A stretch of 51,982 nucleotides of DNA from Bacillota bacterium (GCA_035351775.1 DAOPWT010000001.1:1-51982); one strand, 5' to 3'; shown: positions 1,385-50,649, counted from the stretch's first letter. Numbers and translations are program-made. The notes: generated by a model not told the origin, from the sequence alone.

Positions 1385-2039
1385 CGGCGACCAACTGCAA
1401 GAGGTGCTCCTATGGCACCAGCAGCGCTATCCCAGGATGCAGATTCAGGACCTGGTGAAGCTGGCCTATCAGAACGAGTTTGCCGGCGGGCACATGATCG
1501 CCGACGCAGCGATCAGCCTGCAGCGTCTGCGCGCGGAATTCCAGGCGATCGCCGGCAACTGCAGCGGTGAGAAGCCGGACGAGGTTTTCGTCGGCATCGG
1601 GAATGGTCTCTGTCGGCTGCAACTTGCAGCCATAGAGAGCACCGGCATCCATCTGACTACCGTCAACCAGTTCTTCGTCAATACTGCCCGATCGAGGCGC
1701 GGAGATCTCACCAGTTTCGAACATAAACTGGAGGTGCTCCGCGCCTGCTGTCAGGCGGGCAGCCTCCCACATTCGCCGGCTGACCTTGACGCTTTCTTGC
1801 TGGCCTACCGGGCGCAAGGCTATCCAGCGATCAGCCATAGCGCGGTCTACCGCGACCACTACAAGCCCGCATACCGGGTGGTCGACTCAGTCTGCCGAGA
1901 TCACTTCGCACTCTTCTGCCGGATTGATGCGCTACTAGAATCGCAGGACACTGTGTGCATCGCTATTGACAGCCCGAGCGGCTCTGGCAAGAGCGGACTC
2001 TCCGCTCTGCTGGGCCAGGTCTATGACTGCAATCTCTGA
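1374..2039 (+). CDS. Kinase-like protein with an N-terminal domain of unknown function plus a Walker A; apparently 3'-truncated (uridine-kinase/PRK-family P-loop cut short)
   Basis: The start overlaps the S-component stop, suggesting translational coupling. The ORF ends IAIDSPSGSGKSGLSALLGQVYDCNL*, only 10 codons after the P-loop. No continuation is seen in any frame of 2040-2229. Confidence 0.45.
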   Translation: MISDGDQLQEVLLWHQQRYPRMQIQDLVKLAYQNEFAGGHMIADAAISLQRLRAEFQAIAGNCSGEKPDEVFVGIGNGLCRLQLAAIESTGIHLTTVNQFFVNTARSRRGDLTSFEHKLEVLRACCQAGSLPHSPADLDAFLLAYRAQGYPAISHSAVYRDHYKPAYRVVDSVCRDHFALFCRIDALLESQDTVCIAIDSPSGSGKSGLSALLGQVYDCNL

Positions 2040-2229
2040 CGGCTCTGACTCAGGGCAACCCTCCGATTTCGAACCAAGGCCAAGCAGTAGTGGAATGGTT
2101 TGGCATCAAAGTACAGCGCTGCCAGGCAGGATTTATCGAAGGACCGTCAAATGGTCACGATGCGTTTCGTTGCACGCAGATTGTTCACGCCATGCGCGAG
2201 ACAGCTATACTCCTAAGGAGGGCACAATC

Positions 2230-4689
2230 TTGAGACGCACGCGTCATGCCGTTATCCTGGCACTTGCCGTATGTCTACTTGCGGCTAGCCTCTCACCCCA
2301 TGCACGTGCGCAGGCAGCAGTTGCCGGCGAGAAGACCTACATAGAGCTGATTCTGGACTCTTCGATCAGCATGAGCGCCCGAGTGGAGGGCTGGAAGTCC
2401 AGAATGGACGTGGCCAAGGCCGTCATGGAGCAGCTCATCCGCGACCTTCCGGACGACCCCAATCTCATGGTGGCGCTCAGGATCTACGGGGCCGAGCTGC
2501 GACCGAACCTGACGCCGTGCGAAGATACGGTGCTGGTTCAGCCCTTCGCTCCCGTGGCCAAGTCGCGGCAGAATATGATCGACCAAGTCAAGTCGATGAA
2601 GGCCAGGGGCATGACGCCCATCGCCCTCTCTTTGGAGCAGGCGGCCCGGGACTTCCCCGACAAGACCGCCCGCAACATAATCGTCCTGATCACCGACGGC
2701 GAGGAAAGCTGCGGCGGCGACCCGTGCGCGGTCTCCGCCCGGCTGCAAGCAGATGGATTCGTCATGAAGCCGTACGTGGTGGGGTTCGCCCTCACCGAGA
2801 AGCAGGCCGCTCTGGTGCGCTGCATTGGCGAGTACTACTCGGCTTCGGATACAGCATCGCTCAGGCAAGCTCTCTCCACGATCATGGCCCGCGCCGTCGC
2901 TCCGGCGCACATAGAGGTGCAGGCCTGGGCGGGCGCGGTCAACGTGACAGCGCAGGCGCAAATCGAGATCGTGAAGTCCACCGGCGAGGTCGTGCAGTCG
3001 ACCCGCACCGCGCAGGACCCCCCTGTCGTGCGCGCGCAGGTGGATGAGGGCCAGTACACAGTGCGCGGTCGTCTCATCGTGGGGTCGCAGGTTCTGACGG
3101 CCCAGGCCGTGGGGATTGCCGCGAAACCCGGGCAGACCAGCCTGGTGAGGCTGGACTTCGGTCCGCTGGATGGCAGGGTCCGCGTGACCGCCCGCGCGTC
3201 CGGGCAGGACGTTAGCGGCCGCGTCGACATACGCGTGCTGAAGGCGGGCGCGCCCATCGCAGCGAGCTGGGCCGGGATTCCGCCCACCACGAATCTGCCG
3301 GCGGGCGACTACACAGTCATCGTCACCCACAGGCAGTATCCCGAGCTCACCCGCACGGCGGCAGCCACAGTCCGGGCCGGCCAGGACACCTACGTCGACG
3401 TGGACCTGGGCGAGCTGCCGGCGACGCTCGAGGTGACGGTGACCTACCGCGGAGCGGTCATATCCAACCTGTGCCAGCTGAGCGTGTTCGCGCCGGGGCA
3501 GGCAACGCAGGTGATACGCAGCACAGCTGACGGACGTATGTTCCGTTGGACCTCAACTCCCGGAACCTATGACCTCAGTGTGATGTACCGCGATCTTGTC
3601 ACAGTTGAGAAGGGCGTTCCCGGCGTGCAGCTGGCAGGCGGCCGAACGACCAATATCACCGTGACCCTGGACGACCTCCTCGGCACGCTCCGAACGCACG
3701 TCGTGGCGGGCGGGCGCGATGTAACCGCCGATTCGCACGTGACGGCGGCGGGCCGCGACGGCCAGATCGAACTGCCCTACATGGCGGACGCGCGCCAGGC
3801 GCTCGTGACGCCGGGCGTCTACGCCGTGACCGCGGTCTACTGCGACTCCGAAAGCGATATGTATGAAACCTACGTCAAGCCCGGGGATATCACGGATCTG
3901 ACCCTCGAGGTCAAGTTACCCGGCTTGATCGCGATAATCCCCACAATCGAGGGCAAGCCCATGAGGACCGACAAGCTCCGTGCATGGGCGAGTCTTGACG
4001 GAGTGTCAGTCGGCACTGTCGCGATTCAGCCCGATAGAGTCGAGTTGACTGTGCCGGAAGGCGCCTACACCGTTGTGGGCGAGATATCCGATCCGTTCGC
4101 CCAGCGCAGGGAGGCACCCAAAGTACAGGTGCGGGCAGGCGAAACGGTTCAGGTCAAGATGGACTTCGATCCTGCGGGACTCCTACGCGTCAAGGTTATG
4201 TCCGATGGAAAGCCCCTCACCGAAGCCAAAGTGATGGTGTACCTAGACGGCAAGGGTGGCGGGATGTGGATGAATCAGGTAGACAAGGGCGTATGGGAGA
4301 TGAAGATCGCCGAAGGCACGCACGATATCATGGTCCTCCCGAATGCTGAGGGCTCGAAGTCGCAGCGAATCTCCGGCATAGAAGTTCTCAGCGGAAGCAC
4401 CGTGGAAAAAACCGTCACCGTGGCCGGCAAGGGACTCCTCCGCATCAAGCTCGTCTCCGATGGGAAGCCCTTCACCGAGGCCGTCGTGTTCGTACAGTTA
4501 CACGGTAAGGGTGCCTCGGTATTGATAAAGCAGGTAGGCAAGGGCGTATGGGAGATGGAGGTCGCCGAAGGCACCCACATCATCTCCATTGTTCCAAGCG
4601 CTAAGGGCATGAAGTCGCAGGGGATTCCCGGAGTAGAAGTCGCCAGCGGCGCTATCGTTGAGGTCGTCTTCGACGTCAGTTCTCCTTGA
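2230..4689 (+). CDS. Secreted von Willebrand factor A (VWA) domain protein with multiple Ig-like/carboxypeptidase-regulatory-like beta repeats
   Basis: TTG start at 2230, 7 nt after AAGGAGGG. Signal peptide RRTRHAVILALAVCLLAASLSPHARAQA. MIDAS motif DSSISMS. The rest is a long beta-rich, repeat-containing region. The last two ~85-aa units (4176-4430 and 4431-4686) form a clear tandem duplication. Confidence 0.85.
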   Translation: MRRTRHAVILALAVCLLAASLSPHARAQAAVAGEKTYIELILDSSISMSARVEGWKSRMDVAKAVMEQLIRDLPDDPNLMVALRIYGAELRPNLTPCEDTVLVQPFAPVAKSRQNMIDQVKSMKARGMTPIALSLEQAARDFPDKTARNIIVLITDGEESCGGDPCAVSARLQADGFVMKPYVVGFALTEKQAALVRCIGEYYSASDTASLRQALSTIMARAVAPAHIEVQAWAGAVNVTAQAQIEIVKSTGEVVQSTRTAQDPPVVRAQVDEGQYTVRGRLIVGSQVLTAQAVGIAAKPGQTSLVRLDFGPLDGRVRVTARASGQDVSGRVDIRVLKAGAPIAASWAGIPPTTNLPAGDYTVIVTHRQYPELTRTAAATVRAGQDTYVDVDLGELPATLEVTVTYRGAVISNLCQLSVFAPGQATQVIRSTADGRMFRWTSTPGTYDLSVMYRDLVTVEKGVPGVQLAGGRTTNITVTLDDLLGTLRTHVVAGGRDVTADSHVTAAGRDGQIELPYMADARQALVTPGVYAVTAVYCDSESDMYETYVKPGDITDLTLEVKLPGLIAIIPTIEGKPMRTDKLRAWASLDGVSVGTVAIQPDRVELTVPEGAYTVVGEISDPFAQRREAPKVQVRAGETVQVKMDFDPAGLLRVKVMSDGKPLTEAKVMVYLDGKGGGMWMNQVDKGVWEMKIAEGTHDIMVLPNAEGSKSQRISGIEVLSGSTVEKTVTVAGKGLLRIKLVSDGKPFTEAVVFVQLHGKGASVLIKQVGKGVWEMEVAEGTHIISIVPSAKGMKSQGIPGVEVASGAIVEVVFDVSSP

Positions 4690-4747
4690 CGTTAGGTTCA
4701 GCATGACAGCGCTCGAGCGCCGGATTGCTCAGCGCAGGTATACTGAG

Positions 4748-4779
4748 GGGCGAGGCTGGCAGCCTCGCCCTTCGCTTTT
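4748..4779 (+). terminator. Rho-independent terminator after the VWA gene
   Basis: GGGCGAGGC-TGGCA-GCCTCGCCC followed by TTCGCTTTT. Confidence 0.8.
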
Positions 4780-4862
4780 CACGGTCTGTCTTGGGGCATA
4801 CTCATATGGATGCTCGCCGCTCAGCGGACGATCAGTCATCACACGCGGAGAAGGAGGCACCA

Positions 4863-6557
4863 GTGCACGTGGACATTCAGGATAGTCACGGCGCTTCGGA
4901 TGGGCAGCAGATAGCATGGCGAGGTTGGGGCAGCCAGCCGTTCGACGAAGCACGCGCCGCGGAGAAGCCAGTGCTTCTGTCGATATCTGCGTCGTGGTGC
5001 CACTGGTGTCATGTCATGGACCGAACAACCTTCTCCGACCGCGATGTCGCAGCTCTCGTCAACGAAGCGTACGTCCCCGTACGCGTCGACACTGATGTGC
5101 GCCCGGACGTGAACTCCCGCTACAACATGGGCGGATGGCCGACGGTGGCCATTCTCGATCATGACGGACACACACTGGCAGGCGCGACGTACGTGCCTCC
5201 CGACCGGATGCTGGAGTGGCTAGGCCGGGTATCGCGAGCCTACCCTACACTGACGCGCTCCGGCATGGGCGGAGATCATGAGATGGTCAAGGATCGCCAG
5301 CACGAACTAGACTACGACGGCGAATACGATGACGTCGGCACTTCCGACCGCGAACCCGACCTGGACCCCTATTACGATGTGCTGGGCGATTTGATGGCTT
5401 CCTACGATCCTGTGTATGGCGGGTTCGGAGACGCCCCCAAGTTCCCCATGTTCGAAGCGATCAACCTCGCGATTCTCGCGTACCGTGTCAGCGGCGATGG
5501 CTCGTACAGACAGGTCTTCGAGCATACGCTGCGTGCCATGACCTCGGGCGGAACCTACGACAAAGTAGAAGGCGGTCTCTTCCGATATTCCACAGTCCGC
5601 GACTGGAGCGTACCTCATTTCGAGAAGATGCTGCTCGACAATGCGCTTCTCCTCCATACTCTGGCAAACGCATATCAGGCGACACAGAATTCGGAGTTCG
5701 CCGCCGCTGCGCACAGCACTGTCAGCTACATGAACTCCGTCCTGTTCCAGCCGAACATCCCGGCATGGTCAGGCTCGCAGGACGCTGACGAGGAATACTA
5801 CGTTCTGGCCGCCGCCGAAGAGCGCGCTCGCCGCACCCCGCCGCGAGTCGATACCCGCATATACGTTGACTGGAACGGTCGCGCATCCGCAGCCATGATC
5901 ACCGCCGGGCGCGTGTTCGGCGAACCCGAATGGACCTCGCGCGGGGTGCACGTCCTCCGCGCCATCGTCGACAGATGCCTCGACCCGCAGCGCGGCCTGG
6001 CACATCTGTACGATGGCGAACCTCGCCTGTTTGGGCTAGCCCACGACACGATTTCCGTAGGCGCTGCCTGCCTAGATGCGTTCGAGGCGACGGGCGACCA
6101 GAGTTGGCTTGAGCTGCCGTCTACGCTAGCCCAGTCGCTCATCGCAAGCCACGCCGCGGCGCGGTACATTCGAGGAGCAGCAGGGCTGGTTTCGAGGATT
6201 CCCAACCCCGATGACCCGCCGGCCTTCAAAGAGCCGGCACGCGACTACCAGGAAAACGCTTATGCTGCTATCTGGTTCGTACGGCTGTCCCGCGCACTGC
6301 GCCGCGTCCTGAACGCCGACGATGATCGCGCCGCAGACAACGGCTCGCAAGGTGTGTGCACCGCCCCCGGAGTCTGCAGCATGCCCAGCGCGCCTAATGC
6401 ATCAGGCGAAACCGCCGAGATCGAGATTCTGAGCGCTGCGAACTCATGCCTTGCCTGCTGCCGAGCGAACTATGGAGATCATGGCCTTATGGCTTCAGGC
6501 TACGCCCTCGCACTTGGCCATCTCGCGCTGTCGCCCAACCGCAGCCTGTGCCCGTGA
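4863..6557 (+). CDS. Thioredoxin-domain protein of the DUF255/YyaL family (thioredoxin fold plus alpha/alpha-toroid-like C-terminal region)
   Basis: KPVLLSISASWCHWCHVMDRTTF..GGWPTVAILD is the DUF255 thioredoxin-like signature. GTG 4863 (or 4869) follows a strong AAGGAGG at 4851-4857. The upstream part of the ORF overlaps the terminator. ATG 4806 is an alternative start. Confidence 0.8.
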   Translation: MHVDIQDSHGASDGQQIAWRGWGSQPFDEARAAEKPVLLSISASWCHWCHVMDRTTFSDRDVAALVNEAYVPVRVDTDVRPDVNSRYNMGGWPTVAILDHDGHTLAGATYVPPDRMLEWLGRVSRAYPTLTRSGMGGDHEMVKDRQHELDYDGEYDDVGTSDREPDLDPYYDVLGDLMASYDPVYGGFGDAPKFPMFEAINLAILAYRVSGDGSYRQVFEHTLRAMTSGGTYDKVEGGLFRYSTVRDWSVPHFEKMLLDNALLLHTLANAYQATQNSEFAAAAHSTVSYMNSVLFQPNIPAWSGSQDADEEYYVLAAAEERARRTPPRVDTRIYVDWNGRASAAMITAGRVFGEPEWTSRGVHVLRAIVDRCLDPQRGLAHLYDGEPRLFGLAHDTISVGAACLDAFEATGDQSWLELPSTLAQSLIASHAAARYIRGAAGLVSRIPNPDDPPAFKEPARDYQENAYAAIWFVRLSRALRRVLNADDDRAADNGSQGVCTAPGVCSMPSAPNASGETAEIEILSAANSCLACCRANYGDHGLMASGYALALGHLALSPNRSLCP

Positions 6558-12176: not shown

Positions 12177-12446
12177 CTACATTCTTCCCTGGGGTGAATG
12201 GTATCCCGGCTGCTGGCCCTGCGCCTGACCCATGATCTGATACCATCCCTTAGAGTACATGGTCTCCCACAGTTCGCGCTGTTCCTTCATGTAGTCGTCA
12301 TGGCTATTCATAAAGGTGTTTCGCACGTTGGGGCTCGCCGACTCGACCGTGGCCATGTGATAGCCAAGGAGCATCTCCTTGAGGTCACTCAGAAGGTCGG
12401 AAGCGATGTCCTTGTCAGTGAACTTGCCCTGAAGATCCACATGCAT
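12177..12446 (-). CDS. Spore coat protein, CotF-like (Coat_F domain)
   Basis: 89 aa. The pattern DKDIASDLLSDLKE..GYHMATVESASPNVRNTF matches the Coat F family. SD GAGGGGG lies upstream of the ATG. Confidence 0.7.
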   Translation of the reverse strand: MHVDLQGKFTDKDIASDLLSDLKEMLLGYHMATVESASPNVRNTFMNSHDDYMKEQRELWETMYSKGWYQIMGQAQGQQPGYHSPQGRM

Positions 12447-12472: not shown

Positions 12473-12679
12473 TCACATCTTGGTCTGCCCTGTCTGCCCC
12501 ACTATGCCTTGGAGGGCGTTGACATGCCGCTGGCATGAGTCCATAAGCCGCTGCACGCTCCCCTTAAGCTGCGGATCCTGGATCTGGTTTGAGTAGATGC
12601 CGCACTTTTTCAGGCATAGCTGCTCCTTGCTGAGCTGCTCGTGAGCGAACCAGCTCTCGGTCGGAGTGATTCCCTGCAT
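12473..12679 (-). CDS. Small spore-coat-associated protein (partner of the CotF-like gene)
   Basis: 68-aa ORF from ATG 12679, preceded by AGGGAGG. It is helical and Q-rich and sits 26 nt upstream of the CotF-like gene. The family assignment is tentative. Confidence 0.5.
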   Translation of the reverse strand: MQGITPTESWFAHEQLSKEQLCLKKCGIYSNQIQDPQLKGSVQRLMDSCQRHVNALQGIVGQTGQTKM

Positions 12680-12819
12680 CTGAACCAATCGCGAACCTCC
12701 CTTCGCATCGCGTCGTGATGCCCGCGCACACGCGCCAGCCATCAAGGGTAATATCTCTCGACACGTGCGCCGCTATTCGCGACGGGGGGACGCAGACGAC
12801 TCGGCCAGCACCACGCCGG

Positions 12820-32329: not shown

Positions 32330-33219
32330 AGAGATACACGTTGCTCGCATGCGACATTGACGGCACGCTTCTGAGAAGCGACGGCACAGCAAGCCCGCGC
32401 ACTCTGCAGGCGCTTCGCCTTGCCGAGGCGCACGGCGCCATGGTGGTCATTGCGACCGGAAGAAGGATCGCGTCGACCACACCTGTCGCACACCGGCTGG
32501 GCATTCACTCCCCTTGCATCGCTCATTGCGGCGCGGCGGTCTACGATCCATCGGACGAATCCATCCTGATGTCCAAACAGATACCGAGGCAGACCGCGCT
32601 TCTGGCATGTCGCATCGCCAGCGGCGTCGGCGCCGATGTGGCAGTCCATGAGTCCGTACATTCCGGAAGATCCATATTCGTCACTACGCCCAGGGAGCTA
32701 GAAGACGCGGCGGAGCATTGGCCATTCATGATGCCCTACTACCGGCTCGCAGACGACTTCGAACAGGCGTGCAGAACCGACCCGGTGCAGCTGTGCGTCA
32801 CGGCTGATACCCAGGCCATCCGGACCCTAACACAGCAACTGGCCTGCGATCTGCCGAAGTCACTGTCAGTCGTGGATTATGGAATAGTGGAGAACGGCAA
32901 GCACATGGTGGACGTATTCGCCTGGGGCGTTGACAAGGCCCTGGGACTCGCCTTCGTTGCCGACCTGTACGGCATCGCCCAGCCAGAGACGGCGGGTTTC
33001 GGTGACTCGGTGAACGATATTGAGTTGATACGCCATGCTGGACTGGGTGTGGCCATGGGCAACGCGCCCGACGATATCCGCCGTGTGGCGGACGTAGTAG
33101 CGCCGTCAAATGATGACGACGGAGTGGCTGCCGTCATAGAAGAGCTGGCAGCCGATGGATCGCTTGGGCACGGCGTCGCTCCGGGTGGCGCAATGCGAGC
33201 TAGTTCACGACTGCGTTGA
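32326..33219 (+). CDS. Cof-type HAD-IIB hydrolase
   Basis: LLACDIDGTLL (motif I) and GDSVNDIELI (motif IV). The ATGA overlap with the DMT stop suggests coupling. Confidence 0.85.
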   Translation: MKRYTLLACDIDGTLLRSDGTASPRTLQALRLAEAHGAMVVIATGRRIASTTPVAHRLGIHSPCIAHCGAAVYDPSDESILMSKQIPRQTALLACRIASGVGADVAVHESVHSGRSIFVTTPRELEDAAEHWPFMMPYYRLADDFEQACRTDPVQLCVTADTQAIRTLTQQLACDLPKSLSVVDYGIVENGKHMVDVFAWGVDKALGLAFVADLYGIAQPETAGFGDSVNDIELIRHAGLGVAMGNAPDDIRRVADVVAPSNDDDGVAAVIEELAADGSLGHGVAPGGAMRASSRLR

Positions 33220-34033
33220 CAGGTTCGTACAGGTCTTCTGAGACCAATACGCGTTGGCGTCCCCCATCAGGCGTCTGGGTTTCCGCCCAGACCCTCACTC
33301 GGTACCCGGGCGCGCCGGCGCTGGCCACGACGATGGCCCCAGGCAACGGCGGCGACTTGGCCCTGCCGGTGGGATCGGGGGGCGCCGCAGGCCTTGGAGC
33401 AATCACTTCGACAACCTCGGTGCACAGCCGCACCTCGGGCCCAGCGCTCTGCCCTTCAAGCCAAACGGACACACTGTCCACGCCCACCCGGGACCGCACA
33501 GTCACCGGAGACGGACGCACATTCACCCAGCGAAGATCCGCCGCCCCGTAGGACACGGTGGCATCCAGCCCTGCAGGGAGGTATGGCACGGGCCGCGAGT
33601 GTGGACGCCGCTCGGTGATCTCCATACCCGCAAGCAGCGCGGCATTATAGAGAGTCGAAGACAGCTGGCATATGCCGCCCGCGATGCCGGGCTCGCTCCG
33701 GCCGTCCCGAATGACTCTGGCCGGACCATAGCCGAGCTCGCTGCTGCGCTCGCCTACGGCCTCATTGAACGAGAACTCCTGCCCCGGCCCGACCATAGTC
33801 CCATCGAGCTTCTCTGCGGCGATCGCTATGTTATCGTTACGGCTTCGCTGGTCGGGGTTGAGCTCAGTTGTGCACCTACCGATCACGCAAGTGCCGTTTC
33901 CGGCAGCCAAGTCCGCGCTCGCCCCCGACCGAAAGCGAGCAGCAGGCGCAAGCCTCAGTGCAGCCATGACGGCGACCGCCGTCACCGCCATGGCTATCGC
34001 GACTATGCAGCGCGCGCGTCGCCCACACGACAC
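33200..34033 (-). CDS. VanW-family protein with an N-terminal membrane anchor
   Basis: EFSFNEAVGERS..GYGPA..GGICQLSSTLYNAALLAGMEITERRPHS is the VanW core. The N-terminus has a hydrophobic anchor IVAIAMAVTAVAVMAAL. Confidence 0.8.
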   Translation of the reverse strand: MSCGRRARCIVAIAMAVTAVAVMAALRLAPAARFRSGASADLAAGNGTCVIGRCTTELNPDQRSRNDNIAIAAEKLDGTMVGPGQEFSFNEAVGERSSELGYGPARVIRDGRSEPGIAGGICQLSSTLYNAALLAGMEITERRPHSRPVPYLPAGLDATVSYGAADLRWVNVRPSPVTVRSRVGVDSVSVWLEGQSAGPEVRLCTEVVEVIAPRPAAPPDPTGRAKSPPLPGAIVVASAGAPGYRVRVWAETQTPDGGRQRVLVSEDLYEPVNAVVN

Positions 34034-34065
34034 CCGCTCTCACCTCCGAACACCATGACTGTCGG

Positions 34066-37000
34066 CTACTTCGAGCCTGTTACCTTTATCGCCGAGCTGT
34101 TCCCATGGGCATGTAGCCCAGGGTAGTACATGGACCATGCCTCAGTGGGCATCACTCTGTACGAACCGGGCCTTTCCGGAACCAGAACATACTCGAACGT
34201 CTGGGTCTTGCCGGCCGGAATGCGAGTCGCAAACACTACCATCTTGCTGTCGCGAGCCTCGCTTCTGTCGTACCAGTAGTACCACGAATAGGCGTCCACA
34301 GATTCCTCGCATATCTCAAACCCCGACGGAACTGGGTCCTCAAAGGCCATGTACTCCAGGTCAGTCAGGGCGTGCACGGCAACACGCACAAGCACCTCCT
34401 GGCGGACGCCGATCTCGCCGTCGATGGGGGTCACAGAGTATTTCTGTCCCTTGACGGCTGGGGCATTCCGATCAATCCGGAAGTACTCACGGCTTATGAC
34501 GGCGCAGTCACCGCCGGCTTCTATGTGGTCCTGCGGCACGTACCAAGCTGCCCGCGCCGAGTAGAGAACCGCACCGCCTTGAGTTGTCACCAAGATCTGG
34601 TTGCGACCCGGCACGATGAGGTTTGGATCGATCACAATCGAAGTCGACGCGGATGCCTCTCCCGACGCCGAACCGCCGGCGCCGCCTCCCAACGTCAGGC
34701 TGGCCGTCTCCTTGCCGTTCACGCTGACGGCCACCTTGCGCTCCGCCGAAACGTCATCACCCGACTGGATCATGTACTCTACCAGGCCCAGCACGGCAGC
34801 AGCCGACTCGCGAGTTGAGCGCCACTGCGACCCGGTTCGCGCGGCAGCTAAATGGCGGGCGGCTTCCGGCACCAGCGGGTTGGCAGGGTCCACCCTAAGC
34901 AGTGCCATCATCGCCCACGCCGTGCTCTCCGCAGTCTCATTCCGCCACCAGTGCGCGGTATCTTGGGTTCGCCAGTATGCCTGCCCAGAGCTGCGTGTGG
35001 CCATAGCGCTCAGCCGCTCGGCCCCTGCGGCAGCCATGCTATCCTGGCCCGCACACGACGCCGCCAGGGTGATGTACGCGGTGGTGAGCGGGTCGGCCAC
35101 TGAGCTTAGGACTTGCGACTGCCTGCCGAACCGGACGAATCCATCAAGGGATGCGCCCTTCAGTCGGCCGTACTCCGCCAAGACGAACGAAGAAAATGCG
35201 TATTCCCTGGCGTTGGTGGTTCTGATGCGCGCCAGCGAACCGGCGAGATAGTCGAGAGCCCTGTCGATCACCGGAGCGCTTACATCAAACCCCGCTTCCT
35301 TGGCTCTGCCCAGCCCGAAGAGGACGTACGATGTCATCCACGGATCGCTTTGGTCGAATTCCCACCATCCAAAGCCGCCGTCATCATGCTGGTACTTGTA
35401 CAGCCTGGAAAGCCCTGAATCGACCATGCGCGCAAGCTCCGTCTGGCTGCGCGGCAGAGCTACACCGAGATGCGTGAACGCCCGATGGGCCACGACGTCC
35501 GGCATGAAAGCGCTCATCGTCTGCTCCACACAGCCGTAAGGGTAGTTCACAAGGAACTCCAGAGCCTGCTTCACCACGCCGGCGTAGCCCGGCGACACGT
35601 CTAGCTGCACGCGGGTAGCGCCTCGGAGAGCGTCCTCAGGCAAGTCGAATTCTAGCAACGCGCCGGATGAGTCGGTGGGACGCGTTTCGCCCGCCCATAC
35701 CTTCTCAGCCTCCTCACCGAACGGCAACACAGGCACTGTCATCTCCACCGCGTCTTTCAGGAACCAGGACCTTGCGGCCAGTGACAGTGTCACCTTCCCC
35801 ACCATACTCGGCTCGATCTCCCACTCCACTGAAGCTTGACCATGAGCCGGGACTGTTACGTACTGCTTGGCACGCCCCAAGATATCGGCGCCATCGGCCC
35901 GGAGCGTTACCGACACGCGTCGCGCTCGGCTGGTGTCATTGTGGACTACGCCAGCCACCATCGCCTTATCGCCCAGGGTGTAGTGCCTGGGAAGCCCGAG
36001 CCTGGCCGCGAGAGGCATGGTGACGACCACCTTCTGCTGTGCCTGCCCGACCATGGTTGAGCGCGCGTGCGCCCTCACCGTAGCTCTCCACGTAGTGAGC
36101 GAGTCAGGCATAGTGACGCGCACAACTGCGTGACCGTTGGCGTCAGTCACTATGGACGGGAACCATGCGGCAGTATCGGGGAAGTACTTTCGGGCGCTCT
36201 CAGCCCCGCCGTCCTTGTCGGCGCCGCCGTAGTAGGTCACAGGAAACGAGTTCTCGGTGCTGACTGACCTCTCACGGCGTCCATGGAAGAACTTGCCGAT
36301 GTCGGGGGTGGTATCGGGCCGAACAGCGTATATAGACTCGTCTACAAGGGCAAATGATATCTCGGCCTGCACTGCGTCGCCCTGAGCGTTCTTGGTCTTC
36401 ACAAGATACGTTGCCACCTCGCCGGGGCGATATGAAGTCTTGTTAGGCTGTACCTCCACGAACAGGGCCGTCTCTGGCGACGCAACCGAGATCTCCCGCG
36501 TGGCGGTCTGCATCACACGGGACGCCACTGCGGTGGCAGTCACATACGTGTTGGGGGCGTACTCCTCCACGATAGGCAGTTCCACCGTGGCTGATCCATT
36601 CTCCAGCTGCACCACTCGCACATGCCGAATCTCGCGATCCTCCACGGTAAGCAGCACTCTGGATGCATCTGCCGGTGCAGTGATGAGTACCTTGGCGGTC
36701 TCCCCCGCCTTGTAGCTGGACTTGTCGCATACTATCGTGACGTCATTGTGCCAGGTGGCCGAAAGCCGCCCTGCACTGCCCGATACCCAGATGTGGGCCT
36801 CGGCCACTATGCTGTTACCCCGCTCGTCTACGGCCTTGGCCGTCAGCACGTAGTCTCCTGCCTCAGCTGCCTCCAGCTCCACCGCGACTTCGCCGGAAGA
36901 CGGAGTCGTTACCGCACGACTCGCCACTGGCGTATCCGTATATCCCGTCTTGTCGTAAGTCCTTTTCATCATGACGAGCTCGAGTCTGCGGGATACGGCC

Positions 37001-38535
37001 GAGCCGTCCAGCGCCGCGGTTTTGATGCGGACCTGGAAACGGTCGCCCGGCCCGACAAGATATGCGGACGTCGATACACACATGTCGAACGAACCCATCG
37101 CCACCAAGGCCGAACTCCTGCCCGATGCTTGCTTGTTGGTGGCGTCGATCACGTCCACAGCCAAGATGTACTTGTAGTTGCGCCCATCGGCGCGAGGCGC
37201 CTCAAAGGAGATGAGAGCCCGACCCTGAGCGTCCGTGCTCGCCTCGCCCGACATGACGAAATCTTCGTAATAGTCGCCATAGTCGCCGTAATCGCTGTAG
37301 CCGTATTCCCCATCTGTGCCTGACACGGCCGCGGAGAATGACCCGATGCGCTGTCGGTAGACCCGGTATTCCACTCGGGCATTCGCCACCGGAGCGCCGA
37401 AGTAGTAACTGGCTTCACACGTGGCCTGCAGCGTGTCGCCGGCGATGTACCTATCGCGGTCGAACTTGACGTCTACTGACCACTCAGGCTTGCGGTATTC
37501 CGCCACAGTGAAACTCGACCAATGCTGCTCGCCGCCGATGGTTGCGATTATGGAGTAGGCGCCGAGTGGCGGCTCGCTGCCCAATGTGAATTCGCCGCAG
37601 AAAGAGCCCCAGTCATTCGTGACGAGTTCCTGCTTTGACAGGAGGTTATCGCGAGGGTCGCGGATCTCGACCTTCACAGACTGCCCCGCAGGGATGGTGT
37701 AGCCCGGGTCGACCATAGTCCGAGCTATGCCCTTGAAGTAGACGGTATTGTCGGGCCGGTAGATTGGCCGGTCCGTATAGATGTAGACCTTACTTTGCCG
37801 CGCGTCGAACCAGAAGGATGAGTAGAGCACTGCCAACTCATCGCCTCGCCCGCCCATCACCATGGCGGACGCGGCAGGTTGCGACAGCGGAATAGAGAAA
37901 AGACCCGAATCATCGGTCATGCCGCTCGTCGTGCCGGACGCAGTGGCCGCCGAGGCAAGCTGGTCATCGCCGCCACTGCCCATCAGCGTCACTCGCACAG
38001 GCACGTCCGAGGCAGGCTCGCCGGTCTTCAGGTCGATCGCATAGACAAGCAGGCGCCCGGCAGACTGCTTGGATATGAGGCCAATCCCGCTGACAGTGAA
38101 CCACACCGTATCCTGCTGGCTAAGCTGCTTGGACCGGGTCACGGCCACATACGCCCCGGGAGGCAGTGGATCCAGCTTGACTGAGGCTTCCAGATTGCCC
38201 CCCGGATTGGGGATCCTCACCTTGACCGTGCGCACAAGCGACCTGCCGGGCAGGCGAGCCGGGTTCAGGTTCCACATGGCGTCTGGGCCGGACTCGGAAA
38301 AGTGACGCGCGCCGTCAAATTGGTATATGTCCAGATAGAGTTGGCTGACTCCCCTTCCCCGCACTCCCAGCTCAGCCTGTTCGCCAGGCAGGTAAGTGCG
38401 AGCCGTGGCAAACAGCCACGCATAGGCCTGCCGGGCGGCCATTGCAGGCGCCGCCGCAAGCAGGCATGCCGTTATCAGCATAACGCCTGCGACGCACAGA
38501 ACGAAGATTCGCGTCAGGCGGTTCGGTGTGCCCAC
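34066..38535 (-). CDS. Bacterial alpha-2-macroglobulin family protein (thioester type), probable lipoprotein or secreted
   Basis: 1489 aa. Thioester motif GCVEQ (codons at 35521-35535). N-terminal signal with a lipobox-like LITAC. Long MG-domain-like beta region. GTG start 8 nt after AGGAGG. Confidence 0.9.
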   Translation of the reverse strand: MGTPNRLTRIFVLCVAGVMLITACLLAAAPAMAARQAYAWLFATARTYLPGEQAELGVRGRGVSQLYLDIYQFDGARHFSESGPDAMWNLNPARLPGRSLVRTVKVRIPNPGGNLEASVKLDPLPPGAYVAVTRSKQLSQQDTVWFTVSGIGLISKQSAGRLLVYAIDLKTGEPASDVPVRVTLMGSGGDDQLASAATASGTTSGMTDDSGLFSIPLSQPAASAMVMGGRGDELAVLYSSFWFDARQSKVYIYTDRPIYRPDNTVYFKGIARTMVDPGYTIPAGQSVKVEIRDPRDNLLSKQELVTNDWGSFCGEFTLGSEPPLGAYSIIATIGGEQHWSSFTVAEYRKPEWSVDVKFDRDRYIAGDTLQATCEASYYFGAPVANARVEYRVYRQRIGSFSAAVSGTDGEYGYSDYGDYGDYYEDFVMSGEASTDAQGRALISFEAPRADGRNYKYILAVDVIDATNKQASGRSSALVAMGSFDMCVSTSAYLVGPGDRFQVRIKTAALDGSAVSRRLELVMMKRTYDKTGYTDTPVASRAVTTPSSGEVAVELEAAEAGDYVLTAKAVDERGNSIVAEAHIWVSGSAGRLSATWHNDVTIVCDKSSYKAGETAKVLITAPADASRVLLTVEDREIRHVRVVQLENGSATVELPIVEEYAPNTYVTATAVASRVMQTATREISVASPETALFVEVQPNKTSYRPGEVATYLVKTKNAQGDAVQAEISFALVDESIYAVRPDTTPDIGKFFHGRRERSVSTENSFPVTYYGGADKDGGAESARKYFPDTAAWFPSIVTDANGHAVVRVTMPDSLTTWRATVRAHARSTMVGQAQQKVVVTMPLAARLGLPRHYTLGDKAMVAGVVHNDTSRARRVSVTLRADGADILGRAKQYVTVPAHGQASVEWEIEPSMVGKVTLSLAARSWFLKDAVEMTVPVLPFGEEAEKVWAGETRPTDSSGALLEFDLPEDALRGATRVQLDVSPGYAGVVKQALEFLVNYPYGCVEQTMSAFMPDVVAHRAFTHLGVALPRSQTELARMVDSGLSRLYKYQHDDGGFGWWEFDQSDPWMTSYVLFGLGRAKEAGFDVSAPVIDRALDYLAGSLARIRTTNAREYAFSSFVLAEYGRLKGASLDGFVRFGRQSQVLSSVADPLTTAYITLAASCAGQDSMAAAGAERLSAMATRSSGQAYWRTQDTAHWWRNETAESTAWAMMALLRVDPANPLVPEAARHLAAARTGSQWRSTRESAAAVLGLVEYMIQSGDDVSAERKVAVSVNGKETASLTLGGGAGGSASGEASASTSIVIDPNLIVPGRNQILVTTQGGAVLYSARAAWYVPQDHIEAGGDCAVISREYFRIDRNAPAVKGQKYSVTPIDGEIGVRQEVLVRVAVHALTDLEYMAFEDPVPSGFEICEESVDAYSWYYWYDRSEARDSKMVVFATRIPAGKTQTFEYVLVPERPGSYRVMPTEAWSMYYPGLHAHGNSSAIKVTGSK

Positions 38536-38547
38536 ATCAAATACCTC

Positions 38548-39357
38548 CTAATGCCCGAGGCCGCTGCGCAAGCTGAGCGAGCCTCCGAACTTGACCGTCT
38601 GGAACCGGTACATCTCATACGGCATGCGCGCGTCTATACCTGCCTCCGAAAGCGCCCAGCTCACCTGTTTTGCATGAGTGAGCGCCTCCCCAGGAAGTAT
38701 CACGCCCGACCTTTCGCCGGCGCGCACGAACACTCCATACAACCTCGGATCCCAGGGCGTTCCCGGCGACACCCGCTCCAAACGGCCCACGATTGATACC
38801 GCGTAGCTGCATCCGGCGAGTTCCCACGCTTCTATTGGTGGCCGCCTTAAATCCCGTGCGGCGCTGGCCGCGGCAAAGTGGGATATCTCCTGAGCAAGGC
38901 TGGGAAAATGCGCCCACATGGATCCGACGCATGCGCGCACGGCATTGTTCCTGATAACCGTCACGAATACCCCGGCAGAACGCCGATACAGAATGCCGGA
39001 CACGGAGTCGGGGACACCTGATGCGCTGATGATGTCCCGGGCTGCCGGCAATGGATCACCCCTGACCGAGGCCTCAGCGAAGCGCCGCGCGAGGGTCAGG
39101 ATGAGGCGTTCCATGTGGTCAAGGTCGGCACCGTGCAGTTCATCCAGAACATCGCTGTAGACGTCTACGGCTGAGGCGTCGCCTGCAGCATCTGCGATGA
39201 GCTCACTTGACTCGCCTTGAGCCTGGCCGTGGCCTTCGTCGGCCTCGGGCGGCGGCGTGGACACGCTCACTTGCTCGCGCGCCCGAGCAATGAGCACAAT
39301 TCCCGCAGCGATCGCGATGATCAACACAATGGTCAGCGCCGGCCAGTCGTTACGCAA
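38548..39357 (-). CDS. AMMECR1-domain protein with an N-terminal TM anchor and acidic linker
   Basis: TM segment LTIVLIIAIAAGIVLIA. The AMMECR1 core includes VRACVGS, matching the family RGCIG-type motif. Its stop TAG is part of the A2M gene's TAGGAGG SD. Confidence 0.75.
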   Translation of the reverse strand: MRNDWPALTIVLIIAIAAGIVLIARAREQVSVSTPPPEADEGHGQAQGESSELIADAAGDASAVDVYSDVLDELHGADLDHMERLILTLARRFAEASVRGDPLPAARDIISASGVPDSVSGILYRRSAGVFVTVIRNNAVRACVGSMWAHFPSLAQEISHFAAASAARDLRRPPIEAWELAGCSYAVSIVGRLERVSPGTPWDPRLYGVFVRAGERSGVILPGEALTHAKQVSWALSEAGIDARMPYEMYRFQTVKFGGSLSLRSGLGH

Positions 39358-39451
39358 TGAAGATCTAACCCCCGGTTCCCGTTATCGTGTTGCTACGTTC
39401 TACAAGGCCGTCGGGGAATCCTACACAGCGAAGACGACCATATCAAGGCGT

Positions 39452-49870: not shown

Positions 49871-49939
49871 GTTGTATTGCGTGTTTGGGGCCAACATGGT
49901 ATTGTTGCCTTACCAACTCGCGATCGAGGTGATCGGTGT

Positions 49940-50185
49940 ATGACCTATGCAAAGGCTAGGCTGTCCAGTAAGCGCCAAATCGCGATCCCCGCTGACATTG
50001 TCAGAGAGCTGGGCCTCAAGCAGGGTCAGGATTTCATCGTTCGCTGCGACGGCGCAAGGATCATACTCACTCCCGAGCCGGAGTCATACACGCGCAGATT
50101 CGCCGGCGCGCTGCGTGGGGTATACGGCGATGCTGCCGAAATACGCGACTATCTGAGGAAGGAGCGCGCTTCGTGGGACGAGTAG
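49940..50185 (+). CDS. vapB: AbrB/MazE/SpoVT-family antitoxin (VapB-like)
   Basis: SSKRQIAIPADIVRELGLKQGQ is a SpoVT/AbrB swapped-hairpin motif. 81 aa. ATG follows GAGGTGA. It overlaps the PIN gene start. Confidence 0.8.
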   Translation: MTYAKARLSSKRQIAIPADIVRELGLKQGQDFIVRCDGARIILTPEPESYTRRFAGALRGVYGDAAEIRDYLRKERASWDE

Positions 50186-50649
50186 ACGATGCTGATCACC
50201 TGACTAGACTCAGAGAGCTCCTGTCAGGATCCAGCCAGGTCATTCTGGACACGAATGCACTGATCTACTTCCTTCAGGGAACCGCCCCCTACTTCGATCT
50301 CGTTCAAGCACTGTTTGACGAGATCGAAGCGGGGCGCCTAAGGTGCGGCGTATCCGTCATATCCGAGCTTGAGCTGCTCGTCAAGCCAATCAGAGACTCG
50401 AAGTTTGACGCTCTGGATGAGATCTCGCTCTTCCTGTACGGATTCCCCAATCTCCAGGTATTCCCGGTCAGTCGCGAAACGGCCGCAGAGGCCGCCCGAA
50501 TTCGCGCTGTCACCGGGCTCGGAGTAGCTGACTCGATCATTGCTGCGACCGCGGTCGTCGAAGCGTTCGACTGCATAGTCGGCAACGATAGAGAATGCGC
50601 GAAACGATTTGCCGATACTCCCTATCTCCTACTCGATGACTTCGCGTAG
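50173..50649 (+). CDS. vapC: PIN-domain ribonuclease toxin (VapC-like)
   Basis: ILDTNALIYF (first acidic PIN residue) with later E/D residues (SELE, ADSIIAAT). GTG start 8 nt after AGGAAGGAG. 13-nt overlap with vapB. Confidence 0.8.
   Translation: MGRVDDADHLTRLRELLSGSSQVILDTNALIYFLQGTAPYFDLVQALFDEIEAGRLRCGVSVISELELLVKPIRDSKFDALDEISLFLYGFPNLQVFPVSRETAAEAARIRAVTGLGVADSIIAATAVVEAFDCIVGNDRECAKRFADTPYLLLDDFA

Follow-up and report, generated by a model that had tools for sequence, protein, structure and literature searches.

The stretch of DNA analysed here (the window; 51,982 nucleotides from the metagenome-assembled genome of an uncultured Bacillota bacterium, GCA_035351775.1 DAOPWT010000001.1:1-51982) encodes a thioester-type alpha-2-macroglobulin (A2M) between an AMMECR1-domain protein and a VanW-type protein, and the question raised by the locus is what these three under-understood protein families, which the trio links by a mechanism that we can only infer, have to do with one another. 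The trio fills positions 33200-39357, entirely on the minus strand, in the order AMMECR1, A2M, VanW. The same partnership of A2M, VanW and AMMECR1 recurs in at least six bacterial phyla. Sequence comparison strongly supports the three genes forming one functional unit outside the cytoplasmic membrane, and we give roughly even credence to this unit being a conserved extracytoplasmic three-protein envelope module, composed of an A2M trap, a VanW cross-linker and an AMMECR1 accessory protein.

The genes for the AMMECR1-domain protein (38548-39357, minus strand, 269 amino acids, TTG start), the thioester A2M (34066-38535, minus strand, 1489 amino acids, GTG start) and the VanW-type protein (33200-34033, minus strand, 277 amino acids, GTG start) are separated by gaps of 12 and 32 nt, and both minus-strand junctions were read directly from the sequence. 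At the AMMECR1/A2M junction (38536-38550) the AMMECR1 stop codon TAG (38550-38548) shares its G with a GGAGG (38548-38544) located 8 nt before the A2M GTG (38535). At the A2M/VanW junction (34034-34068) the A2M stop codon TAG (34068-34066) is followed within the gap by a GGAGG (34047-34043), 9 nt before the VanW GTG (34033). The tight coupling of three minus-strand genes and the overlap of the TAG with the Shine-Dalgarno sequence were thus correctly described in an earlier first-pass annotation of the window. In the orthologous loci L001 and L002 the A2M and VanW genes overlap by 4 nt. The GenBank product names for the trio are generic only. A Pfam search of the window gave no pbpC-like or yfaS-cluster gene near the trio, so that the locus has neither of the two established A2M arrangements, as had also been noted in the first pass.

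GTDB species representatives were scanned with an A2M alignment and the best 80 of more than 596 matches were taken as loci, in which open reading frames (ORFs) were called and searched with trio-derived hidden Markov models as well as E. coli PbpC and YfhM. As the survey comprises the closest 80 matches, its percentages apply to this A2M radiation and not to bacterial A2Ms in general. VanW adjoins A2M in 18 of the 80 loci, AMMECR1 in 12 and both in nine, which shows that the linkage is not unique to one genome; in about half of the modules AMMECR1 has the look of an obligatory third member. Under a generous null of random neighbours (0.4% for VanW and 0.13% for AMMECR1 per locus) the adjacencies have P values of ~1e-26 and ~1e-21, calculated for loci that are not phylogenetically independent, though their flanks, gene order and fusion state differ. 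VanW is linked in 4/4 Bacillota and 9/11 Armatimonadota loci (both misses being contigs that end at the A2M), in 0/32 Acidobacteriota and in 0/16 Chloroflexota. One or two linked loci each were found in Sericytochromatia, Omnitrophota, Desulfuromonadaceae, Eisenbacteria and unclassified metagenome-assembled genomes, in all of which the full trio is present. Since most carriers belong to diderm phyla, the module is not confined to spore-formers. Only L093 and five Chloroflexota loci yielded PbpC-like genes; the window and L001-L011 contain none, so that no close relative has an adjacent pbpC.

The four closest loci (L001-L004; A2M identity 50-58%) have the same AMMECR1-A2M-VanW order as the window. 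Taken by themselves these four carry little weight, because this Bacillota lineage is syntenic over a larger region that includes the HAD hydrolase, HD_5, Na/Pi cotransporter and DnaK operon genes. The next A2M relatives (37% identity) are A2M-VanW fusions of ~1700 amino acids (1711 in one full-length fusion), checked with Pfam, and in L005, L006 and L011 an AMMECR1 gene stands directly upstream of such a fusion in a different genomic context. Fusions of this kind occur in three lineages. Two gene orders were observed, AMMECR1-A2M-VanW and VanW-AMMECR1-A2M (L072, L079, L080 and L090-L092), and start/stop overlaps typical of translational coupling are present in L001, L002 and L090-L092. The linkage was also found from the side of the partners. 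The AMMECR1 query has 50 detectable relatives, and each of the three distant ones inspected (33-40% identity) belongs to a VanW-AMMECR1-A2M cluster (L090-L092); VanW relatives fall into long PG4-VanW-G5 and short VanW-only proteins, and the three short ones inspected all adjoin an A2M (L093-L095). The co-occurrence across phyla, the two gene orders and the fusions together argue that the trio acts together, probably in physical contact, and the fusions imply that A2M and VanW act close enough to tolerate being joined in one chain.

A rough neighbour-joining tree of the A2Ms, calculated without support values, places the VanW/AMMECR1-linked A2Ms as a basal grade with the Acidobacteriota and Chloroflexota clades nested inside it and YfhM well separated from all of them. 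This makes the linkage look ancestral to this A2M radiation rather than the product of a recent exchange of partners. The first-pass annotation had compared the gene with thioester A2Ms of the yfhM type and had proposed a phylogeny against the yfhM and yfaS clades. With E. coli YfhM the window A2M shares only 22% identity, and its matches among PDB sequences (Sa-A2M 4u48 and ECAM 5a42/4ziq, ~1e-30) have about the same E-values for the bacterial YfhM/Sa-A2M structures as for human CD109 and A2M, from which it follows that it is not a yfhM-type gene with a swapped partner.

Export of all three products is likewise strongly supported by their sequences: the A2M has a signal peptide, VanW a transmembrane anchor and AMMECR1, in the orthologues, a transmembrane helix or signal peptide. 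The A2M has the Pfam domains MG2, bMG3, bMG5, A2M_BRD, A2M, TED_complement and bMG10. It starts with a Sec signal peptide (residues 1-33, probable cleavage at AMA|ARQ), followed by the bait-region domain (residues 600-737), a bait-equivalent linker (residues ~745-785; 36181-36303, minus strand), the A2M domain proper (residues 788-878), the thioester motif GCVEQ within the thioester domain (TED; residues 1001-1005; 35521-35535, minus strand, exactly where it had been annotated) and bMG10 (residues 1351-1472). In an alignment with YfhM the bait of ECAM falls at residues ~750-785. The CxEQ motif is invariant in the A2M alignment A1 and across 88/88 surveyed A2Ms. On sequence grounds there is therefore strong support for a complete protease-trap architecture whose CxEQ thioester is intact, and bait-cleavage-triggered covalent capture of proteases may be supposed. 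The string LITAC, previously annotated as lipobox-like, does exist, but it was rejected as a lipobox: its Cys is absent from every orthologue, and at this position the orthologues (37-58% identity) have signal peptides of the signal peptidase I type with AxA-type cleavage sites, the window having AMA|ARQ at the aligned position. Because the Cys is unconserved and the orthologues have ordinary Sec signal peptides, the window A2M is most likely a soluble, exported protein.

The VanW gene product was assigned to PF04294 with 154.4 bits against a cut-off of 27 (E 1.5e-45). It consists of a predicted transmembrane anchor (residues 3-27) preceded by RRAR, a catalytic domain (residues ~48-194; 33452-33892, minus strand) and a G5-like C-terminal domain (residues ~200-276; 33206-33436, minus strand), and these three parts were recovered in an AlphaFold2 model (pLDDT 91); the catalytic domain is predicted to be extracytoplasmic behind the N-terminal membrane anchor. 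In a structure search the C-terminal ~80 residues matched the G5 domains 3eo5, 6oh1 and 4fzq (probability 1.0); the catalytic domain had no PDB counterpart by sequence or fold, in agreement with the published description of a novel fold. VanW domains, whose function had been given as unknown in the first pass, are now known to be peptidoglycan L,D-transpeptidases (LDTs) with a Cys-His-Asp triad (Bollinger et al., PNAS 2024, PMC11348318); for the C. difficile enzymes Ldt4 and Ldt5 the Cys is essential and meropenem is an inhibitor (PMC11348318). The corresponding residues of the window protein are Cys122 (33668-33670), His145 (33599-33601) and Asp157 (33563-33565), all on the minus strand. They are invariant in all 31 (25 + 6) A2M-linked VanW domains examined, fusions included, and likewise in a 31-sequence alignment (A3) that has canonical PG4-VanW-G5 proteins, to which the window domain is ~35-40% identical. 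On these grounds the window VanW would be an L,D-transpeptidase-like enzyme. Like Ldt4, Ldt5 and the other VanW LDTs it combines PF04294 and the triad with an N-terminal anchor and a G5-like domain that follows the catalytic one (PMC11348318); unlike Ldt4 and Ldt5 it is short (277 amino acids) and gave no Pfam match to PG_binding_4 (PF12229), a domain that is present in about half of VanW proteins, Ldt4 and Ldt5 included (PMC11348318). The short architecture without PG_binding_4 is common to the A2M-linked relatives, and these short proteins differ further from the described VanW LDTs in standing in A2M neighbourhoods (3/3 relatives) and largely in diderm phyla, where VanW is reportedly scarce.

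The AMMECR1 fold is conserved from archaea to humans, and the human AMMECR1 gene maps to the AMME chromosomal region (Alport syndrome, intellectual disability, midface hypoplasia, elliptocytosis). The window protein was assigned to PF01871 with 82.7 bits against a cut-off of 25 (E 2.8e-23). An N-terminal transmembrane helix (residues 7-29; 39271-39339, minus strand) and a disordered acidic linker (residues ~41-63) precede the AMMECR1 fold (residues 66-262; 38572-39162, minus strand). Foldseek searches with the AlphaFold2 model (pLDDT 86) matched solely 1zq7, 1wsc and 1vaj (E ~2e-13 to 8e-12; template-modelling score up to 0.72). R141, C143, G145, D169, R171 and an LPGEA motif are invariant; the conserved (L)R-G/A-C-I/V-G motif of the family is met as VRACVG, with the invariant Cys143 encoded at 38929-38931 (minus strand). 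The protein thus resembles the AMMECR1 family, including AmmeMemoRadiSam proteins (TIGR04335) and the structures 1vaj, 1zq7 and 1wsc, in its fold and R-x-C-x-G motif pocket, and differs from it in being exported or anchored instead of cytoplasmic and in being linked to A2M and VanW. Export of the domain is read from the sequences, because every full-length orthologue starts either with a positive N-terminus and a transmembrane helix or with a cleavable signal peptide. To our knowledge, export is unusual for the AMMECR1 family. As it is a soluble periplasmic protein in several phyla, AMMECR1 is probably no mere anchor. Assignment as AmmeMemoRadiSam protein A was rejected: the TIGR04335 score is 55.3 bits against a cut-off of 99, and the gene stands between the A2M and a CDF transporter gene, with no Memo or radical-SAM gene adjacent. 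In a Bacillota A2M-VanW locus without AMMECR1 (L026), a radical-SAM/SPASM protein (L026:7595-8695), itself preceded by two or more ORFs of at least 250 amino acids, lies ~0.9 kb ahead of the A2M; this neighbour is notable given the AmmeMemoRadiSam association of AMMECR1 and may be a coincidence.

For bacterial A2Ms the reference is the yfhM-pbpC pair, which Budd is said to have proposed in 2004 as a 'trap and repair' system of a thioester A2M and a peptidoglycan synthase. This association of an A2M with a peptidoglycan synthase has become the paradigm, with ECAM and PBP1C in a 'defence and repair' hypothesis (PMC4498604, PMC5764988). The window resembles it in having a CxEQ A2M with MG, bait-region (BRD), TED and MG10 domains beside a membrane-anchored peptidoglycan cross-linker, the two probably co-transcribed and both products extracytoplasmic. 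The partners themselves differ: here VanW is of a type with a Cys nucleophile, 3-3 links and a novel fold, whereas PBP1C is a class A penicillin-binding protein (PBP) with GT51 and Ser D,D-transpeptidase domains. The window further differs in its third gene for an exported AMMECR1 protein, in the absence of an adjacent pbpC and in its A2M, which belongs to a separate radiation and has no conserved lipobox, whereas ECAM and Sa-A2M are described as inner-membrane-anchored (in PDB entries as lipoproteins). The analogy to the A2M-PBP1C pair is nevertheless made much stronger by the assignment of VanW to an L,D-transpeptidase family with an invariant triad. The proposal in the first-pass annotation that VanW replaces PBP1C accordingly gained in its functional part, a PBP1C-like role being more plausible; 'replaces' is too strong, because in L093 a PBP1C-like gene accompanies the A2M along with a short VanW.

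In the mechanism that we favour, the secreted A2M would be held at the interface of membrane and wall by its anchored partners, as MagB retains MagD in Pseudomonas (PMC5764988), and would trap peptidases reaching the wall or periplasm. The attached VanW would make local 3-3 cross-links, re-stitching or hardening the peptidoglycan under attack, so that A2M and VanW would be a functional analogue of ECAM and PBP1C that uses a different class of cross-linker, one insensitive to beta-lactams. L,D-transpeptidases are used in E. coli for peptidoglycan repair under envelope stress (PMC12729407), and the proposed repair by VanW fits this. The exported AMMECR1, with its invariant Cys/Asp/Arg/Glu pocket, may bind or regulate the A2M-VanW complex; this accessory function is our best guess. 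The Type II systems P. aeruginosa magABCDEF and E. coli yfaS are the working analogy for a soluble A2M localized by membrane-anchored operon partners. They differ in that the Mag A2Ms have no thioester and that the partners in the six-gene operon are of DUF1175, DUF2138, DUF2300 and DUF2135 types, unrelated to VanW or AMMECR1; none of these four families was found in the window with Pfam.

Several points weigh against the trap-and-cross-link mechanism. We infer each of its activities, namely protease trapping, L,D-transpeptidase activity and complex formation by the trio, from sequence. Four of the seven foreign VanW proteins assayed by Bollinger et al. had no LDT activity and three were active (PMC11348318), so that activity of the short subfamily without PG_binding_4 is not guaranteed. 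Co-transcription is suggested solely by the 12 and 32 nt gaps: scans for promoters and terminators gave the same counts as shuffled sequences and say nothing on this point. The topology of the window AMMECR1 is ambiguous by charge (RAR follows the transmembrane helix) and was taken from the orthologues. A hypervariable bait was looked for in the A2M and none was found; the bait-equivalent linker HGRRERSVSTENSFPVTYYGGADKDGGAESARKYFPDT (residues ~745-785, just before RKYFPDTAAW) ranks with the most strongly conserved segments of the A2M, also in comparisons across phyla. One would not expect such conservation in a trap for a broad range of foreign proteases; it better suits a dedicated, possibly endogenous target. 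Finally, two A2Ms found through their AMMECR1 neighbours (L091:1564-6924 and L092:8692-13956) have lost the thioester Cys, with GTEP and HTEQ in place of CxEQ, and in both loci VanW retains an intact C/H/D triad and AMMECR1 an intact RACVG motif; the module is thus not tied to the thioester. A role of VanW or AMMECR1 in thioester formation or chemistry was considered and is disfavoured by the same two loci.

An alternative that we consider somewhat unlikely is that the main task of VanW is not the cross-linking of glycan strands: with tetrapeptide stems of the peptidoglycan as acyl donors and an amine of the A2M, or of an A2M-protease adduct, as acceptor, it would fix the soluble trap covalently to the wall. 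An A2M without a conserved lipid or transmembrane anchor needs some means of retention, and attachment of proteins to peptidoglycan by YkuD-family LDTs is well established (PMC12729407). The cases known there (E. coli LdtA/B/C with Lpp; tethering of outer-membrane proteins in Coxiella and Brucella; PMC12729407) resemble the window in that a Cys-based LDT is genetically coupled to an envelope protein; they differ in that the VanW fold is not that of YkuD and that covalent tethering of the A2M is a putative model. Attachment of proteins is not known for any VanW enzyme. A VanW fused to the C-terminus of the A2M would be placed beside its protein substrate, but in these same fusions the C-terminus of the A2M is internal. 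The short A2M-linked subfamily lacks the PG_binding_4 domain found in Ldt4 and Ldt5 (PMC11348318), which speaks for this reading; it has nevertheless kept the G5-like domain, thought to be glycan-binding, which suits a peptidoglycan-directed enzyme equally well. Many A2Ms end in Lys or Arg, but such ends are equally common in A2Ms without VanW and are missing in several linked ones, and no conserved acceptor residue was found. The A2M C-terminal Lys (...GSK) was accordingly rejected as an Lpp-like LDT acceptor. In every clade, Lys or Arg is the last residue of a large proportion of the A2Ms (for example ...LEVK in Acidobacteriota and, for the window protein, ...TGSK); this recalls the C-terminal Lys used by LDTs for Lpp and shows no correlation with a VanW neighbour.

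An extended form of the tethering proposal, in which the trio is a self-contained covalent capture-and-fixation machine, with the short VanW enzymes as a subfamily dedicated to the macroglobulin as their true substrate and ligating A2M or A2M-protease adducts to peptidoglycan stems, and with the exported AMMECR1 as a required catalytic or chaperone cofactor, is in our estimate unlikely. If true, it would give the AMMECR1 fold its first biochemical role and would extend protein-to-wall ligation to a second, non-YkuD enzyme family.

A further alternative, of low probability, is that the A2M is no defence against foreign proteases but a dedicated inhibitor or regulator of a self-encoded wall peptidase, or of VanW or AMMECR1, and that the trio is a control unit for peptidoglycan remodelling. 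Conservation of the bait-equivalent segment across phyla points to a single conserved cleaving enzyme instead of a range of foreign ones, some modules do without the thioester, all surveyed A2M clades adjoin peptidoglycan enzymes, and cleavage that depends on a partner is also known for MagD-type A2Ms (PMC5764988). However, no candidate self-protease is conserved in the A2M neighbourhoods, the substrates of VanW-type enzymes are L,D bonds in stem peptides and not protein baits, and the characterized bacterial A2Ms trap exogenous proteases in vitro (PMC4498604, PMC5764988). Mere co-regulation by a shared envelope-stress signal, or hitch-hiking by joint transfer, with no direct functional or physical coupling, is very improbable: conservation within the Bacillota lineage, where the whole region is syntenic, could be passive, but the linkage outlasts a complete change of flanks, a change of order and at least six phyla, three lineages fuse A2M and VanW in one polypeptide, and the start/stop overlaps are typical of translational coupling.

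The trio appears not to have been described previously. No paper joining A2M with VanW or AMMECR1 was found in the searchable literature, which misses most subscription journals, so that an earlier mention is possible; no mention of macroglobulin was found in the VanW discovery paper (PMC11348318) or in an LDT review of December 2025 (PMC12729407), and NCBIfam has no system-specific model for the trio. The suggestion of an undescribed module made in the first pass is upheld within these sources. The most original element of the finding is the AMMECR1 connection: the trio is the first extracytoplasmic, tightly defined genetic context for this universally conserved domain with solved structures. 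Bacterial A2Ms are well characterized in structure, but their in-vivo role remains hypothetical and is drawn for the most part from the adjacency of yfhM and pbpC. A second, widespread pairing of an A2M with a peptidoglycan cross-linker, this time of a different family, provides independent comparative support for traps working together with wall cross-linking. The pairing would also define a purpose for the short VanW proteins without PG_binding_4 and bears on the recently discovered VanW class of LDTs, which are of interest as antibiotic targets. The scheme in which Type I means pbpC and Type II the mag operon is incomplete, as at least three further partner sets exist: VanW with or without AMMECR1, DUF1175 with PBP-transpeptidase/SpoIID, and VanW with PBP1C.

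The last of these sets was met in L093 (7001-14969), where a short VanW-only gene is convergent to a 2012-amino-acid CTEQ A2M that is followed by a PBP1C-like gene (Transgly, Transpeptidase and BiPBP_C); L095 has the same arrangement of VanW and a 2050-amino-acid A2M on a contig that ends before any third gene. In A2M-VanW loci of the Armatimonadota type the position of AMMECR1, directly upstream of the A2M, is taken by a gene for a protein of 450-670 amino acids that belongs to no Pfam family (L020:3778-5280, L038:7785-9380, L043:3500-4903, L062:8313-9662, L086:8229-9632, L016:7314-9323, L071:2927-4933 and L094:765-2273); one cluster representative resembles a polytopic membrane protein. In L007 a 201-amino-acid unannotated protein follows VanW. 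A search for further partners common to the VanW-type loci gave nothing beyond this unannotated membrane protein of the Armatimonadota and, in two loci, SpoIID-type proteins.

Other surveyed A2M clades also stand beside peptidoglycan enzymes, PbpC-like in Chloroflexota and PBP-transpeptidase/SpoIID with DUF1175 in Acidobacteriota, which supports a general theme of A2Ms with wall enzymes. The thioester (GCTEQ) A2Ms of Acidobacteriota have their own conserved cluster, present in 32 loci within L019-L082 (for example L054:8349-9404, L061:14218-14988 and L039:12076-14790). Upstream of the A2M it contains a DUF1175 protein, which is YfaT-like and has a weak NlpC/P60 match, and immediately downstream a multi-transmembrane protein of 256-272 amino acids without a Pfam match and then a ~900-amino-acid protein with PBP-transpeptidase, SpoIID and Peptidase_MA_2 domains. 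Thioester A2Ms in such a mag/yfaS-like context blur the dichotomy of Type I and Type II operons.

The flanks of the trio in the window are unrelated to peptidoglycan. Upstream lies a CDF cation-efflux gene, and downstream a convergent Cof-type HAD hydrolase gene whose 3' end overlaps VanW by 20 nt. The 94 nt gap between the CDF gene and AMMECR1 contains a promoter-like site, TTGATA-17-TAGGAT (39418-39446, minus strand), which is a candidate operon promoter; it is a weak consensus match in a region with four such sites against 2.5 expected by chance. The remainder of the window is chromosomal housekeeping (DnaK-GrpE-DnaJ-ClpB, PepF, YchF, ABC transporters), and no outer-membrane marker was found in its 52 kb. 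The spore-coat background given in the first pass was confirmed by a Coat_F domain gene (12177-12446, minus strand, E 1e-21), which lies beside a family-less ORF of 90 amino acids (12473-12745, minus strand). Directly after clpB, genes for a MazE/AbrB-type antitoxin (102 amino acids) and a PIN-domain toxin (158 amino acids) overlap by 13 nt (49877-50649, plus strand). Near the start of the window a 907-amino-acid protein with VWA and CarboxypepD_reg domains (1966-4689, plus strand) is followed by a 610-amino-acid DsbH/thioredoxin-like DUF255 protein (4725-6557), and these two may be another exported envelope pair.

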